Virus record (IMG/VR): IMGVR_UViG_2541047861_000014 | DNA from: a virus | Lineage: Duplodnaviria > Heunggongvirae > Uroviricota > Caudoviricetes | Reading direction: 5' to 3' (one strand) | Length of the DNA stretch: 37,035 nt | Part shown: piece by piece, positions 8,982 to 15,205 of the stretch | How positions within the stretch are numbered: the first letter of the stretch is position 1 | Layout of the letters: each line of letters starts with the position of its first letter | Translations under genes and position numbers: made by a program | The notes under the pieces: generated by a model | The model's input: the letters and a program-made list of their open reading frames with translations, nothing else | Databases searched by the model: none | What the model was told of the DNA's origin: nothing

Positions 8982-9545
8982 ATGAGGCTAACCGTGGGTA
9001 AGTATCACTGGAAAGTAGAAAAACAGCCTGAGTGGTACGTGAAAGCTGTCAGAAAAACTATCGCAGCGTTGCCGGGTGGTTACGCTGAAGCAGCTGACTG
9101 GCTGGATGTAACAGAGAACGCATTATTTAACCGCCTTCGTGCCGATGGCGATCAGATTTTCCCGCTGGGATGGGCAATGGTTTTACAGCGCGCGGCTGAC
9201 ACTCACTACATTGCGGATGCTGTCGCACAGTCTGCTGGTGGGGTGTTCGTATCGCTTCCTGAAATTGAGGAAGTAGAGAACGCCGATATAAACCAGCGCC
9301 TGCTGGAAGTCATCGAACAGATCGGGAATTACTCAAAGCAGATTCGTTCGGCAATCGAAGATGGGGTCGTGGAGCCACACGAGCAGACAGCAATTAATGA
9401 TGAGTTGTATCTGTCAATTTCGAAGCTCCAAGAGCATGCAGCACTGGTCTACAAAATCTTTTGCGCTCCAGAAAAGAGTGACGCCCGCGAGTGTGCAGCT
9501 CCGGGCGTCGTGGCGTTTTGTGTCTGTGGAGAAACTAACGCATGA
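8982..9545 (+). CDS. Early regulatory protein in the cII position (possibly CII/CP76-like)
   Basis: 187-aa ORF directly after cro; family assignment from memory only, weak RBS. Confidence 0.4.
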   Translation: MRLTVGKYHWKVEKQPEWYVKAVRKTIAALPGGYAEAADWLDVTENALFNRLRADGDQIFPLGWAMVLQRAADTHYIADAVAQSAGGVFVSLPEIEEVENADINQRLLEVIEQIGNYSKQIRSAIEDGVVEPHEQTAINDELYLSISKLQEHAALVYKIFCAPEKSDARECAAPGVVAFCVCGETNA

Positions 9546-10378
9546 ACAGTTTAACGGCAAATAACCGTTTGTCGCAACAGCTGGTGGTCAGTGTCGCTGA
9601 ACACCTGTTGTTACGGCATGAATGCAGATTACCAAATCACCTGGCTGTAAGTAACCACAGAGAACTTTACCTGACTGTGGGGGGCGAGTTGTGCGGGAAC
9701 TTAACCGCTGGTTTCGTGACGGAAGAGGGCTTTATGTCCATGTTATTCGTTGGGAACCAGAAACACAGCGCGTTATCTATCTTCGCAAAGACTACCCGCA
9801 TGAGTGCTTTAGTCCTTTGTGGAAATTCAGGCGTGATTTTGTTGAGTGTGAAGGACCACCAGCACATTGATTCTGCCATTCCGGGACGTTACACTGTTCA
9901 GGCACCTTATAAAGCGGGTGACGGGATTGGCGTCCTGGAAATGTTATCGGCGATATATGACGCGCCAGCGTCTTTTTTATCGTCTGTGTCTGTGCACACC
10001 CAAATTATGGTGGGCTGGACGGGGGCACCGAAAGGTGCGCCGGTTTCCGATAACGCCGGTTACGCCAACCCCGTTCAGTTCACCACCAGCGAAATTGGCG
10101 TTTCCGGTGGTGAAGGTAATTCACTGTTATCGGAGGCTGCCATCATGGCTACTGTCCCAGCCCTCACTCGTCTGAATGATGAAGACTTACATAAACTCAG
10201 TTATGTAACAACTGCACTACGTGCTCTGCGCAAGGTAACTCTTTCGGATCCGCAGGCGCATCAGGTTTTGGTAGAAACCCTTCTTAACTTGCAGGCTGAA
10301 CGTATTCGTCTGGCGGATAAGGCTAATTTTCATATTCACCGTCTCCTGAATATCAGCGGAGGGCATCGTCATGCTTAA
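9542..10378 (+). CDS. Hypothetical early protein (278 aa)
   Basis: ORF coupled by ATGA overlap to the upstream gene; no recognised motif. Confidence 0.5.
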   Translation: MNSLTANNRLSQQLVVSVAEHLLLRHECRLPNHLAVSNHRELYLTVGGELCGNLTAGFVTEEGFMSMLFVGNQKHSALSIFAKTTRMSALVLCGNSGVILLSVKDHQHIDSAIPGRYTVQAPYKAGDGIGVLEMLSAIYDAPASFLSSVSVHTQIMVGWTGAPKGAPVSDNAGYANPVQFTTSEIGVSGGEGNSLLSEAAIMATVPALTRLNDEDLHKLSYVTTALRALRKVTLSDPQAHQVLVETLLNLQAERIRLADKANFHIHRLLNISGGHRHA

Positions 10379-10607
10379 TCCGTTGATCCTCAATATTTGC
10401 CGTTTGCTTCAGCGTAAAAAAACATCAATTCCTACAGTTGGGCAGTGGTACACCACGCCTGCAGGGCATGTTCTACGTGTTAGCCTGGTTGACCGTGAAT
10501 GTCAGAAGGTGATTTGTGAACCGCTGGGCCGTAATTACCGCATCAGTATGCCGCTTATAGCCTTTTGCTCCGGAAAAAACATGAAGCATCTCGGAGGTGC
10601 AGCATGA
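10371..10607 (+). CDS. Hypothetical small protein (78 aa)
   Basis: GGAGGG RBS 8-9 nt upstream; stop overlaps the start of the replication gene (ATGA). Confidence 0.5.
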   Translation: MLNPLILNICRLLQRKKTSIPTVGQWYTTPAGHVLRVSLVDRECQKVICEPLGRNYRISMPLIAFCSGKNMKHLGGAA

Positions 10608-11422
10608 GTATGGAGCTGATGGTTAAAGCGATGAAAATTCGAGTGGGTAATCCATTGCGAAAACTGGTTCTGATCAAGCTGGCTGATAATGCCAGCGATC
10701 AGGGTGAGTGCTGGCCCAGCTACCAGCATATTGCTGACCAGTGCGAGATTAGCAAACGTTCTGTGATGAATCATATTGCGGCCCTTTGTGATTCCGGGCT
10801 GGTAAAAAAAGTCACCCGGAAAGGTGAAAAAGGTAACTCAAGTAATATCTATCTCCTTCATCTTGATGGTGCAGGAGATTCACTAGGGGGTAGTGCAAAT
10901 AATTCACTATCTGGTGCAGCAAATTCACCAGGTAGTGCAGGAGTTGCACCAGGGGGTGGTGCAGGAGATTCACCCAGAACCAGTCACTCTTTTGAACCAG
11001 TCAAAGAACCAGTCAATGAACCAATAGCTGTTGGTGCATCTGCTGATGAGTCTGTGCGAGTTCGTTCAAACCGACCGGAATACTCTCCGGAGTTTGAGCA
11101 GGCATGGCTGGCATACCCCAAACGTGCTGGTGGCAATTCAAAATCTGCAGCCTTCAAAGCCTGGAAAGCCCGTTTGAATGAGGGGGTAAAACCCGAAACC
11201 ATGCTGGAAGGTGTGAAACGCTACGCGGGCTGGGTATCTGCGATGGGTAACAGCGGCACACAATTTGTGAAACAGGCTGTCACGTTCTTTGGTCCGGATC
11301 GTCATTTCGAAGAATCCTGGGAAGTTCCTGCGGTATCTGCAGCCAGACGCGAGGACCCGTACTTCAAAGCCAGTTACGACAACGTGGACTACAGCCAGAT
11401 CCCGGCAGGATTCAGGGGGTAA
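10604..11422 (+). CDS. Phage replication initiation protein (O-like replisome organiser, N-terminal HTH), with internal iteron-like repeats
   Basis: ATG at 10604 with GGAGG at 6 nt; N-terminal HTH (SYQHIADQCEISKRSVMNHIAAL); Gly/Ser/Ala-rich linker encoded by DNA direct repeats; conserved C-terminal region (EFEQAWLAYPKR...). Confidence 0.65.
   Translation: MSMELMVKAMKIRVGNPLRKLVLIKLADNASDQGECWPSYQHIADQCEISKRSVMNHIAALCDSGLVKKVTRKGEKGNSSNIYLLHLDGAGDSLGGSANNSLSGAANSPGSAGVAPGGGAGDSPRTSHSFEPVKEPVNEPIAVGASADESVRVRSNRPEYSPEFEQAWLAYPKRAGGNSKSAAFKAWKARLNEGVKPETMLEGVKRYAGWVSAMGNSGTQFVKQAVTFFGPDRHFEESWEVPAVSAARREDPYFKASYDNVDYSQIPAGFRG
10868..11020. repeat. Iteron-like direct repeats inside the O-like gene (candidate replication origin)
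   Basis: About five imperfect ~21-24 bp repeats (consensus roughly GGTRGTGCAnnAnnTTCACYA), including a perfect 16-bp copy GGTGCAGGAGATTCAC at 10868 and 10958; followed by GAACCAGTCAA repeats at 10994-11017. Confidence 0.55.
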
Positions 11423-11424
11423 TC

Positions 11425-11913
11425 ATGAGTCTTTTGAATGAAGTTCAGAAATTCATTGAAGCCCATCCGGGGTGTACTTCCGGAGACATTGCAGATGCTT
11501 TTGCAGGTTACTCACGGCAGCGCGTTCTGCAGTCAGCAAGCAAGTTACGTCAGAGTGGGCGTGTGGCTCACCGTTGTGAAGGAGATACACGCAGACATTT
11601 CCCGCGCCTGACTGAGAGAGCGCAGGAGCCGGAACCACAACCAGTTCGTGAAACCAGACCTGTGCGCAATTTCTATGTCGGCACTAACGATCCCCGGGTA
11701 ATTTTGTGCCTGACCCGCCAGGCTGAAGAACTGGAGTCCAGGGGCTTATACCGTCGTGCTGCAACCGTGTGGATGGCGGCATTCCGTGAAAGCCACTCCC
11801 AGTCAGAACGAAACAATTTTCTGGCGCGCCGTGAGCGGTGCTTACGGAAAAGCAGCAAGCGCGCTGTATCGGGTGATGAGTGGTATCTGTCAGGGAATTA
11901 CGTGTGGGCTTAA
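11425..11913 (+). CDS. Putative transcriptional regulator (PerC-like C-terminal region)
   Basis: 162 aa; C-terminal LESRGLYRRAATVWMAAFRESHSQSERNNFLARRERCLRK resembles PerC-family activators (from memory). Confidence 0.4.
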   Translation: MSLLNEVQKFIEAHPGCTSGDIADAFAGYSRQRVLQSASKLRQSGRVAHRCEGDTRRHFPRLTERAQEPEPQPVRETRPVRNFYVGTNDPRVILCLTRQAEELESRGLYRRAATVWMAAFRESHSQSERNNFLARRERCLRKSSKRAVSGDEWYLSGNYVWA

Positions 11914-12239
11914 TGACGACGTTAACTCAATGCCAGCAGCAGGTGCTGGATATGCTGATTTCTTATCAGAAAGAACGTGGTTTCCCGCCAACCAATCAGG
12001 AGGTGGCAGCCATGCTGGGATACCGTTCGGTGAATGCAGCGGTGGAGCATCTTCGCGCACTGGAGAAAAAAGGCGTCATCACGATAAAGCGTGGCGTGGC
12101 CCGGGGTATCACGCTTCATACCACAGTGAAGGACGACGACAGCGAGGCAGCCGGGATTATCCGTGCACTGCTTGCCGGTGAGGAAAACGCCAGACTGCGT
12201 GCAGCCCACTGGTTACATGAGAGGGGCCTGAAAGTATGA
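11913..12239 (+). CDS. LexA-N-terminal-like winged-helix DNA-binding protein
   Basis: MTTLTQCQQQVLDMLISYQKERGFPPTNQEVAAMLGYRSVNAAVEHLRALEKKGVI matches the LexA DNA-binding-domain pattern; no peptidase domain; TAATG overlap with upstream gene. Confidence 0.55.
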   Translation: MTTLTQCQQQVLDMLISYQKERGFPPTNQEVAAMLGYRSVNAAVEHLRALEKKGVITIKRGVARGITLHTTVKDDDSEAAGIIRALLAGEENARLRAAHWLHERGLKV

Positions 12240-12625
12240 AGCTGATCCTGCCTTTCCCGCCCAGCGTGAACACGTACTGGCGACACCCCAACAAAGGGGC
12301 GTTTGCTGGTAAGAGCCTGATAAGCGCGGCGGGGCGCAAATTCCAGAGCGCGGCGTGTGCAGCAATATTTGAGCAGTTACGTCGTCTGCCAAAACCAACG
12401 TCGGCACCTGCTTCAGTGGAGATCGTGTTGTTTCCTCCGGATAACCGGATCCGCGATCTGGACAACTATAACAAGGCGCTGTTTGACGCCCTGACCCACG
12501 CGGGTGTGTGGGAAGACGACAGCCAGGTGAAAAGAATGCTGGTGGAGTGGGGACCGGTTATCCCGGAAGGGAAGGTCGAGATCACTATCAGTAAGTACGA
12601 GAAAACGGCGGGTGCAGCCGCCTGA
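12236..12625 (+). CDS. rusA: RusA Holliday-junction resolvase
   Basis: MKLILPFPPSVNTYW... with the conserved Asp-rich core (DLDNYNKALFDALT); 129 aa. Confidence 0.85.
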   Translation: MKLILPFPPSVNTYWRHPNKGAFAGKSLISAAGRKFQSAACAAIFEQLRRLPKPTSAPASVEIVLFPPDNRIRDLDNYNKALFDALTHAGVWEDDSQVKRMLVEWGPVIPEGKVEITISKYEKTAGAAA

Positions 12626-13443: not shown

Positions 13444-14439
13444 GTGACCGTGAGAGCACTACTGACCCCTGAAATTGCCCCGCGTATGGGGATTGTATTG
13501 TTCAGGCCAGGTTCAGAGCTGATGCCCCTGTTTATGCAGGGGCGTGTCCTGCTGGAGCCTGAGCCGGAACGTTATTCATCTTTCGCCAGTGGTGCCGTTC
13601 CGGCGGCATCACAACCGCTGGCGGATGATCCTGCCGTTCGGGCCGTGTTCCGCAATGAGGCAGTGATCCGTCGTGCTGGTGGCGTGGAATGTCTTGAAAG
13701 CTGGTTACTTCGTGAAAAGGGCTGTCAGTGGCCTCATTCCGACTGGCACAGCGAGAACATGACCACAATGCGGCACGCTCCGGGAGCAATTCGTCTGTGC
13801 TGGCACTGCGATAACCAGCTGCGTGACCAGTTCACGGAACGGCTGGAATCAATGGCAACGGATAACTGTGCCCGCTGGGTGTTGTCTGTCGTGCGTCGGG
13901 ATCTCGGTTTTGATGACAGTCACGTTGTGACAATGCCGGAACTGTGCTGGTGGCTGGTTCGTAATGATTTGGCGGATGCCTTACCGGAAAGTGCAGCCCG
14001 TAAGGCACTGAGATTACCGAAGCCTGTTGTGCCATCTGTCACCCGGGAAAGTGACCTTGTGCCTTCGGTTCCTGCCACCAGCATCATCCAGGATAAAGCG
14101 AAAAAGGTGCTGGCGCTGAAAGTGGATCCGGAGTCGCCGGAGTCTTTTATGTTACGCCCCAAACGTCGCCGCTGGGTTAATGAAAAGTACACGCGCTGGG
14201 TTAAGACGCAGCCGTGCGCATGTTGTGGAAAGCCAGCTGATGATCCCCACCACCTGATAGGCCACGGTCAGGGTGGAATGGGTACAAAAGCGCATGATCT
14301 CTTTGTGTTGCCTTTGTGCAGAAAGCATCACGACGAGCTGCATGCGGATACCGTGACATTTGAAGAGAAGTATGGCTCCCAACTGGAGCTGATATTTCGT
14401 TTTATCGATCGTGCGCTGGCAATTGGCGTACTGGCGTAA
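13444..14439 (+). CDS. DUF968 (YdfU-like) nin-region protein with C-terminal Cys/His zinc-binding HNH-like motif
   Basis: GTG start with GAGG RBS; C-terminus CACCG ... HHLIGHGQGGMGTKAHD ... CRKHHDELH; sits directly upstream of Q as ydfU does in Qin. Confidence 0.65.
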   Translation: MTVRALLTPEIAPRMGIVLFRPGSELMPLFMQGRVLLEPEPERYSSFASGAVPAASQPLADDPAVRAVFRNEAVIRRAGGVECLESWLLREKGCQWPHSDWHSENMTTMRHAPGAIRLCWHCDNQLRDQFTERLESMATDNCARWVLSVVRRDLGFDDSHVVTMPELCWWLVRNDLADALPESAARKALRLPKPVVPSVTRESDLVPSVPATSIIQDKAKKVLALKVDPESPESFMLRPKRRRWVNEKYTRWVKTQPCACCGKPADDPHHLIGHGQGGMGTKAHDLFVLPLCRKHHDELHADTVTFEEKYGSQLELIFRFIDRALAIGVLA

Positions 14440-14452
14440 GTGGAGAACGAGC

Positions 14453-15205
14453 ATGAACCTTGAAGCCTTACCAAAATATTACTCCCCAAAATCTCCAAAA
14501 TTGAGTGATGCCGCACCGGCGACAGGCTCAGGTGGTTTAACGATTACGGATGTGATGGCTGCGCAGGGGATGGTGCAGTCGAAAGCACCGCTTGGGTTTG
14601 CCTTATTCCTGGCAAAAGCTGGCGTTCAGGATCCTCACTTTGCGATTGAAGGTCTGCTCAATTACGCGATGGCACTGGATAACCCGACATTGAACAAATT
14701 GAGTGAAGAAATCCGGTTACAGATCATCCCTTACCTTGTGAGTTTTGCCTTTGCTGATTATTCCAGGTCTGCGGCAAGTAAGGCTCGCTGTGAGCCTTGT
14801 GCTGGTACTGGATTTCATAATGTATTGCGCGAAGTGGTGAAATACTCCAGAAGCGGGGAGTCTGTTATCAAGGAAGAGTGGGTGAAGGAACTATGTCAGC
14901 ATTGTCATGGTAAGGGAGAAGTCAGCACAGCGTGCAGAGGGTGTAAGGGTAAAGGTATTGTCCTGGATGAAAAAAGGACCCGGCTTCATGGCGCGCCTGT
15001 TTATAAGATTTGTGGGCGTTGCAATGGAAACCGGTTTAGTCGTTTACCAACGACACTGGCGCGGTGTCATGTCCAGAAGCTGGTACCAGACCTGACTGAT
15101 TATCAGTGGTACAAAGGATATGCAGATGTCATTGATAAACTGGTTACAAAGTGCTGGCAGGAAGAAGCATATGCTGAGGTGCAATTAAGAAAAGTGACGA
15201 GATAA
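14453..15205 (+). CDS. Q: Late-gene antiterminator Q
   Basis: ATG at 14453 with GGAGAA RBS; multiple CxxC pairs (CEPCAGTG, CQHCHGKG, CRGCKGKG, CGRCNG); followed by a promoter and a short-transcript terminator. Confidence 0.75.
   Translation: MNLEALPKYYSPKSPKLSDAAPATGSGGLTITDVMAAQGMVQSKAPLGFALFLAKAGVQDPHFAIEGLLNYAMALDNPTLNKLSEEIRLQIIPYLVSFAFADYSRSAASKARCEPCAGTGFHNVLREVVKYSRSGESVIKEEWVKELCQHCHGKGEVSTACRGCKGKGIVLDEKRTRLHGAPVYKICGRCNGNRFSRLPTTLARCHVQKLVPDLTDYQWYKGYADVIDKLVTKCWQEEAYAEVQLRKVTR

Follow-up and report, generated by a model that had tools for sequence, protein, structure and literature searches.

The PerC-type regulators of pathogenic E. coli, PerC of EPEC and PchA-E of EHEC, are single-domain proteins of about 89-104 aa (PchE 90 aa, PchD 89 aa) that are encoded on mobile elements. 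PchA-C activate the LEE (PMC5931665, PMC4764244) and relieve H-NS silencing at LEE1 (PMC4764244). PchD and PchE have a minimal effect on ler (PMC5931665), and curli are repressed by PchE (PMC6265319). YfdN, encoded by the CPS-53/KpLE1 prophage of E. coli K-12, has been treated only as the PerC homologue of this strain and was deleted in reporter strains (PMC5931665). Where yfdN appears in papers, it is either deleted in this way or part of an over-expression screen (PMC5931665, PMC2853380, PMC6206680).

E. coli LexA combines a winged-helix DNA-binding domain with an S24 peptidase/dimerisation domain, an Ala-Gly cleavage site and a catalytic Ser/Lys pair. Dimerisation of LexA requires its C-terminal domain. 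The sole characterised truncated LexA homologue of a phage is gp6 of the Bacillus tectivirus GIL01, an early protein that is essentially a LexA DNA-binding domain and escapes RecA-mediated cleavage (PMC6182141). It is 44% identical to the corresponding domain of the host LexA, yet binds another palindrome, GaCACAnnTGTGaC, and activates the late promoter of the phage (PMC6182141).

The locus described here encodes one protein of each type. It is part of a 37,035-nucleotide viral DNA sequence (IMG/VR record IMGVR_UViG_2541047861_000014), hereafter the window, and comprises the two open reading frames ORF A (162 aa) and ORF B (108 aa), which overlap at 11425-12239 by TAATG, just as the initial annotation had described them. 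ORF A is the same two-domain protein of 162-164 aa as YfdN and orf40 of phage SfV (96-98% identity), and no structural difference separates it from YfdN. It resembles PerC and PchA-E in its C-terminal 60 residues, which match the PerC profile, and in being encoded on a mobile element; it differs from them by an additional winged helix and a linker. ORF B is the same protein as SfV orf42 and mEp460 gp46 (PHROG 362; 93-95% identity) and occupies the same place upstream of rusA, but in both of these phages a dam gene stands between the PerC gene and the ORF B homologue. Compared with LexA, ORF B has the winged helix but lacks the S24 peptidase/dimerisation domain, a conserved Ala-Gly cleavage site and the catalytic Ser/Lys, and carries a 35-aa helical hairpin of its own instead. 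Judged by its description, the truncated LexA homologue of GIL01 is the type into which ORF B fits, with the difference that gp6 consists of nothing but the DNA-binding domain, to which ORF B adds the hairpin as an extra conserved tail, and that the phage type and the host are not the same (PMC6182141). Late control is exerted by gp6 in GIL01 and by Q in the window, in which no operator for ORF B was found. A search of the literature on YfdN-type and phrog_362 proteins returned no direct experiment and, for yfdN, screen-level mentions only.

The locus and its prophage

The genes from cro to Q form the early-right operon of an SOS-inducible lambdoid prophage. Tightly packed on the + strand, genes for a cro-like, a CII-like and an Ash-family protein are followed by the replication initiator gene, ORF A, ORF B, rusA, and genes for a KilA-N protein, a DUF968/HNH protein and the Q antiterminator; a Peptidase_S24 repressor is encoded upstream of them on the opposite strand. 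With the replication gene on one side and Q on the other, ORF A and ORF B occupy a position that corresponds to a nin region, as originally proposed. The stop codon of ORF A (TAA, 11911-11913) and the start codon of ORF B (ATG, 11913-11915) have one base in common, and the end of ORF B is joined to the start of rusA by an ATGA overlap. The features of the locus are listed in Table 1.

Table 1. Features of the ORF A/ORF B locus and its neighbours (positions in the window)
Feature	Position	Strand	Remarks
Replication initiator (HTH_36 / DnaD-like)	10565-11422	+	PF13730 and phrog_270 matches; upstream neighbour, same operon as ORF A
ORF A	11425-11913	+	162 aa; AGGGGG precedes ATG; YfdN-type PerC-family protein
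ORF A N-terminal domain, residues 1-60	11425-11604	+	Predicted winged helix-turn-helix
ORF A PerC domain, residues 90-149	11692-11871	+	Predicted three-helix bundle; Pfam PerC match
Junction TAATGA	11910-11916	+	ORF A stop and ORF B start; site of missing dam
ORF B	11913-12239	+	108 aa; LexA N-terminal domain only; phrog_362, SfV orf42 type
ORF B winged helix-turn-helix, residues 1-69	11913-12119	+	LexA-type fold
ORF B C-terminal helical hairpin, residues 73-102	12129-12218	+	Absent from LexA
rusA (Holliday-junction resolvase)	12236-12625	+	PF05866 match; directly 3' of ORF B
Q antiterminator	14411-15205		Downstream of ORF A/ORF B

Escherichia phage 2H10 (NC_049950) matches the window at positions 114-21047 with 99.5% identity (78% of the first 25 kb covered). 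The 815-bp locus itself is 99.8% identical to phage 2H10 and 100% identical to prophages of E. coli S88, APEC O1 and others. Of 5426 complete E. coli genomes, 2675, about half, contain a match to it. Roughly 40% of E. coli genomes have a member of the ORF B family. ORF A is identical (100%) to RefSeq entry WP_000055034.1 and is named "PerC family transcriptional regulator" by RefSeq/PGAP, in some records yfdN; the RefSeq names for ORF B are "LexA family protein" and "LexA repressor". Together with the counterparts in phage SfV (orf40 for ORF A, orf42 for ORF B), these names mean that the families proposed initially were already standard annotation. ORF A and ORF B are ordinary, already annotated accessory content of a common E. 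coli prophage.

When compared with 60-66 distinct alleles from related loci, dN/dS was 0.20 for ORF A and 0.14 for ORF B, and the ORFs on the other strand and in the other frames over the locus matched no phage family. The low ratios and the lack of a family in other frames establish ORF A and ORF B as real and constrained genes, and both are under purifying selection. A promoter scan from 7.5 to 17.5 kb gave 14 matches versus 11.6 in shuffled sequences, which is no excess, and the + strand from the replication gene to rusA had none. A search against a library of defence systems returned only noise.

The integrase end of the window resembles a prophage located beside yjjG / tRNA-Leu in the B2 strains S88, APEC O1 and UTI89, the Ash/Rha module of which differs from that of the window. 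A fragment of UTI89, C5098-C5102, which includes yfdN2, corresponds to window positions 8982-11913. It caused filamentation in an over-expression screen in UTI89, in which the responsible gene was not singled out (PMC6206680); the effect could equally well come from the YmfL-like or neighbouring genes.

ORF A, a YfdN-type protein with a PerC domain

The PerC-like C-terminus that the initial annotation ascribed to the 162-aa protein was borne out by the profile search: Pfam family PF06069 (PerC) matches residues 98-151 with an E value of 1.1e-9 and 38.9 bits, above the cut-off of 22.6. The phage family phrog_1324 extends over residues 1-160 (E 1.6e-77), thus full length across both domains, and E. 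coli proteins of 164 aa (P0123, P0126) are 96-98% identical to ORF A. In the AlphaFold2 model (mean pLDDT 76.6), a winged helix (residues 1-60) is connected by a linker (63-84) to a three-helix domain (90-149). The elements predicted for the N-terminal domain are helices 3-13, 19-25 and 31-44 and strands 47-52 and 55-60, with pLDDT values of 80-90. Foldseek aligned 58-67 residues of this domain at 2-3 Å with the winged helices of ArsR, MarR and BlaI, at weak E values of 0.03-0.1. The linker is predicted to be disordered and varies in sequence, whereas the N-terminal domain is kept in 17 homologues and the PerC domain is likewise conserved. The three helices of the latter (90-105, 109-122, 126-149) reach pLDDT values of about 90-94. 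No solved structure was found for ORF A.

Within the PerC domain, identity amounts to 40% over 52 aa with PchE and to 33% over 46 aa with PchD. With identities of only 33-40%, ORF A was ruled out as an orthologue of PchD and PchE, or of PchA-E in general, and is therefore assigned to a separate YfdN subfamily; it also deviates from the single-domain build of PerC and PchA-E by its length of 162 aa and by the winged helix and linker. Membership in the ANR family (NF033650) was rejected as well, for the match to residues 96-142 (11710-11850; E 2.2e-5) scores 24.2 bits and stays below the cut-off of 32. Although below threshold, the similarity to the ANR (AraC negative regulator, Aar-like) profile hints that PerC and ANR proteins, both small helical regulators, may be distantly related.

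ORF B, a LexA DNA-binding domain with its own C-terminal hairpin

The description of the 108-aa protein as a LexA DNA-binding domain without a peptidase held as well. PF01726 (LexA_DNA_bind) matches residues 1-65 of ORF B along the whole profile (E 3.4e-19, 68.8 bits, cut-off 23.7), and the Pfam search gave no match to Peptidase_S24 in this protein, which stops at residue 108. The family phrog_362 covers ORF B from residue 1 to 108 and the profile from 1 to 106 of 106, including the C-terminal tail (E 3.5e-58). In a phmmer search, residues 2-69 aligned without gaps with residues 2-69 of E. coli LexA (1lea, 3jso; E 8e-16), and the predicted model superimposes on DNA-bound E. coli LexA (3jso_B) at 0.9 Å over 68 residues that are 50% identical. 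ORF B is not a LexA equivalog: the match to TIGR00498 reaches 67.6 bits against a cut-off of 110.95 and comprises only profile positions 1-91 of 203.

Four of the five LexA residues that PMC13416735 (after Knegtel 1995) gives as DNA-binding are kept in ORF B, namely S39, N41, A42 and E45, while V takes the place of E44. Also kept is the wing motif R64-G65-I66, which is invariant in the family of ORF B; the best-conserved part of this family is the recognition helix. The C-terminal hairpin consists of two predicted helices, 73-88 and 93-102, with pLDDT values of about 90 in a monomer model. It is conserved in relatives of 105-118 aa with 40-51% identity, among which A97 and L101 are invariant; this family is restricted to prophages of Enterobacteriaceae.

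The motif LLAGE of ORF B aligns with VAAGE of LexA and was considered as a relic of the cleavage site. At this position, relatives of ORF B have LLANE, MVERE, LTRKE, IDDQP and others; because the AG is not kept in the family, the motif was dismissed as a relic.

Gain and loss of single genes

In an alignment with phage SfV, the window lacks the 654-bp dam gene exactly between two ATGA motifs. The homologues of ORF A and ORF B are separated by dam in SfV, mEp460, Stx2c phages and most other phage matches, which is why the match to the locus commonly splits into two pieces 650 bp apart. The TAATG overlap exists because the gene usually found between ORF A and ORF B is missing. Among the 5426 complete E. 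coli genomes, the dam-less junction is present in 711, and either half of the junction in 2190.

The arrangement was surveyed in 80 viral contigs that carry a 98-100% identical DUF968 gene. The order PerC-Dam-B-RusA prevails (53 contigs), followed by PerC-B-RusA, the type of the window (14 contigs). PerC-Dam-RusA was found in four contigs, Dam-RusA in three and Dam-B-RusA in two, and in the remaining four DUF968 alone was detected. In backbones that are otherwise 96-99% identical, each of the three genes ORF A, dam and ORF B is either there or cleanly missing, with precise junctions; in contigs missing ORF A, only its first 26 codons are left. This precise absence of one gene at a time from a constant backbone identifies ORF A, dam and ORF B as individually dispensable inserts. 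Exact single-gene units bounded by ATGA/TAATG overlaps are visible at window positions 11910-11916, in related locus L002 at 3489-4142, and in loci L121, L122, L125, L145, L147 and L160. The gain and loss of single genes looks like a cassette-style shuffling by microhomology at overlapping stop and start codons.

More distant relatives of ORF B, with 40-51% identity, were collected from Kosakonia, Kluyvera, Enterobacter, Citrobacter, Silvania and several metagenome contigs. Almost always, rusA follows them directly on the 3' side, usually with an overlap, and is itself followed by DUF968 and Q. A methyltransferase gene is often found upstream, and a PerC-like gene in only about half of the cases. 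The stable neighbour of ORF B is thus rusA and not the PerC gene. The initial annotation had regarded ORF A and ORF B as a coupled pair. The coupling by TAATG is real in the window, but it is a property of the dam-less variant and not of the gene families. The idea of a pair did not stand: dam lies between the genes in 53 of the 80 contigs, the genes are lost singly, and distant relatives of ORF B often occur without a PerC gene. The pairing of ORF A and ORF B is incidental, and the two do not form a two-gene system.

LexA boxes and candidate operators

LexA boxes were searched with a matrix compiled from E. coli SOS boxes, at a threshold of 12 bits; under this matrix, the window contains no LexA box of at least 12 bits. 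Exact and one-mismatch occurrences of CTGT-N8-ACAG number 18 in the window, against 12.6 expected, and none of the spacings from 0 to 20 of CTGT-Nk-ACAG is enriched in it. Among short palindromes considered as operators between 7.5 and 17.5 kb, none stood out. With neither a LexA box nor an enriched spacing, no cis target for ORF B was found in the window. One exact CTGT-N8-ACAG, CTGTAAGTAACCACAG, lies within the Ash-family gene at window positions 9645-9660, and SfV and mEp460 have kept it as well; its score as a LexA box is poor, and it is probably coincidental coding sequence.

Strong SOS boxes are present in 44 of the 80 related loci (40 of 69 with ORF B, 4 of 11 without it). These boxes, of 20-27 bits, are situated inside a cI-type gene, downstream of Q, or between rusA and the next gene. 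A link between SOS boxes and ORF B was therefore considered and discarded, as there is no clear association and the boxes belong to other mosaic modules that also occur without ORF B. The coding region of a cI-like XRE repressor contains the near-consensus LexA box TACTGTTTTTACATACAGTA (25 bits) in a prophage of E. coli S88 (L003, 11684-11703) and in two further loci (L014 at 1103, L016 at 996); the immunity module of the window is devoid of it. Another box, TACTGTAAAAATAAACAGTG (22 bits), is located downstream of Q in 31 of the 80 related viral contigs, about 3.9-5.0 kb downstream of the start of ORF B (L091-L166), and is absent from the window.

In two loci with distant relatives, L010 (3560-3579) and L013 (3561-3580), a LexA box of 21-26 bits lies over a promoter-like site (TTGCAA/TTGCAT) behind a terminator. 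Downstream of the box follow a gene for 75-82 aa, the ORF B homologue, rusA, DUF968 and Q. To judge from this arrangement, the nin/Q operon of these prophages may have its own SOS-controlled promoter. The boxes are suggestive in that they would fit either control by the host LexA or autoregulation.

Possible functions of ORF A and ORF B

ORF A and ORF B are probably independent accessory genes in the cro-to-Q operon of an SfV/2H10-like prophage, the former encoding a YfdN-type protein of the PerC family and the latter a protein with the LexA N-terminal winged helix only. Because they belong to the rightward early operon behind an S24-type repressor, they would be expressed mainly after induction and not in the resting lysogen. 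By analogy with Pch and PerC, ORF A may loosen silencing complexes of the H-NS type. Its winged helix might add DNA targeting to the PerC domain, which would make ORF A a DNA-targeted anti-silencer during lytic growth. Lacking the protease/dimerisation domain, ORF B cannot be inactivated by RecA-stimulated self-cleavage. It may dimerise via its own conserved C-terminal hairpin in place of the C-terminal domain of LexA, and would then bind palindromic operators with LexA-like (CTGT-type) half-sites in lytic growth. These operators could be either host SOS boxes or a phage-specific site. The tight linkage of ORF B to rusA speaks against this explanation and could indicate a non-transcriptional role.

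How ORF B would act can be read in several ways. It is conceivable, though rather unlikely, that ORF B recognises a phage-specific palindrome other than the SOS box, activates or represses a phage promoter and thereby times late or accessory genes. The sole characterised phage protein of the LexA-domain-only kind does so (PMC6182141), and ORF B is encoded upstream of Q in the early operon. Distant relatives of ORF B have only 40-51% identity, as opposed to 63-80% for RusA and 52-69% for DUF968, and such faster evolution is often seen in regulators that determine specificity. Nonetheless, no conserved candidate operator was found, late control is already provided by the Q antiterminator, and ORF B is absent from seven otherwise near-identical phages and therefore is no essential late activator.

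Somewhat less probable is the assumption that ORF B, as an uncleavable LexA mimic, holds the SOS boxes of the host while ORF A activates host regulons, including those for virulence. Crosstalk of this kind with the host had been proposed in the initial annotation and, as far as the sequence goes, remains plausible. The agreement of ORF B with the LexA domain in identity, fold, wing residues and all but one of the five listed DNA contacts argues for it, as do the conservation of the recognition helix within the family and, in the two distant relatives, the SOS box upstream of the small-gene neighbour of the ORF B homologue. On the side of ORF A, it is consistent with the activation of the LEE by PchA-C (PMC5931665, PMC4764244). 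Several observations weaken it all the same. The window is without an SOS box, and in related loci strong boxes show no clear association with ORF B. The replacement of E44 by V affects one of the contact residues. LexA depends on its C-terminal domain, and the hairpin of ORF B may set another half-site spacing. GIL01 gp6 illustrates that considerable identity to the host LexA domain is compatible with binding to a different palindrome (PMC6182141). [quoted passage not shown] The genes are, moreover, equally common in non-pathogenic contexts, including yfdN of K-12.

The corresponding role for the whole ORF B family, that of an uncleavable LexA mimic which re-imposes repression at LexA boxes after induction while the host LexA is destroyed, is likewise unlikely. 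If it were true, the SOS regulon of the host would be switched off, perhaps with ruvAB among its genes, and this could be to the advantage of the resolvase RusA, whose gene is co-transcribed. Other prophages in the same cell would likewise have their LexA-controlled modules shut down.

A third reading takes ORF B not as a transcription factor but as a DNA-binding accessory of the recombination module that works with RusA. Phage lambda offers an analogy, as its small Fis-like protein NinH is encoded beside the Rap resolvase. In five enterobacterial genera, and even where relatives of ORF B have only 40% identity, rusA stays directly 3' of ORF B, mostly with a four-base overlap, and ORF B has weak matches to the DnaD_N and O-like replication initiator profiles. 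This reading is nevertheless improbable, more so than the preceding ones, since RusA is known as a self-sufficient dimer that acts alone, ORF B occurs without rusA in two loci (L018, L020) and rusA without ORF B in seven, and the adjacency may only reflect inheritance as a block in which overlapping genes leave no room for recombination.

Returning to the preferred reading of two independent accessory genes, a large proportion of E. coli genomes encodes both types of protein, and their family names date back to the SfV records. Should YfdN-type proteins counteract H-NS, anti-silencers carried by phages would be very common. Binding of ORF B to SOS boxes, if it takes place, would give induced prophages a brake on the SOS response that resists RecA, with consequences for mutagenesis, filamentation and the competition between prophages.

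Several proteins of 140-220 aa in a library of representative sequences (P0248, P0251, P0257, P0258 and P0264) contain two tandem stretches that resemble the LexA DNA-binding domain. They could represent covalently linked "dimers" of this domain.
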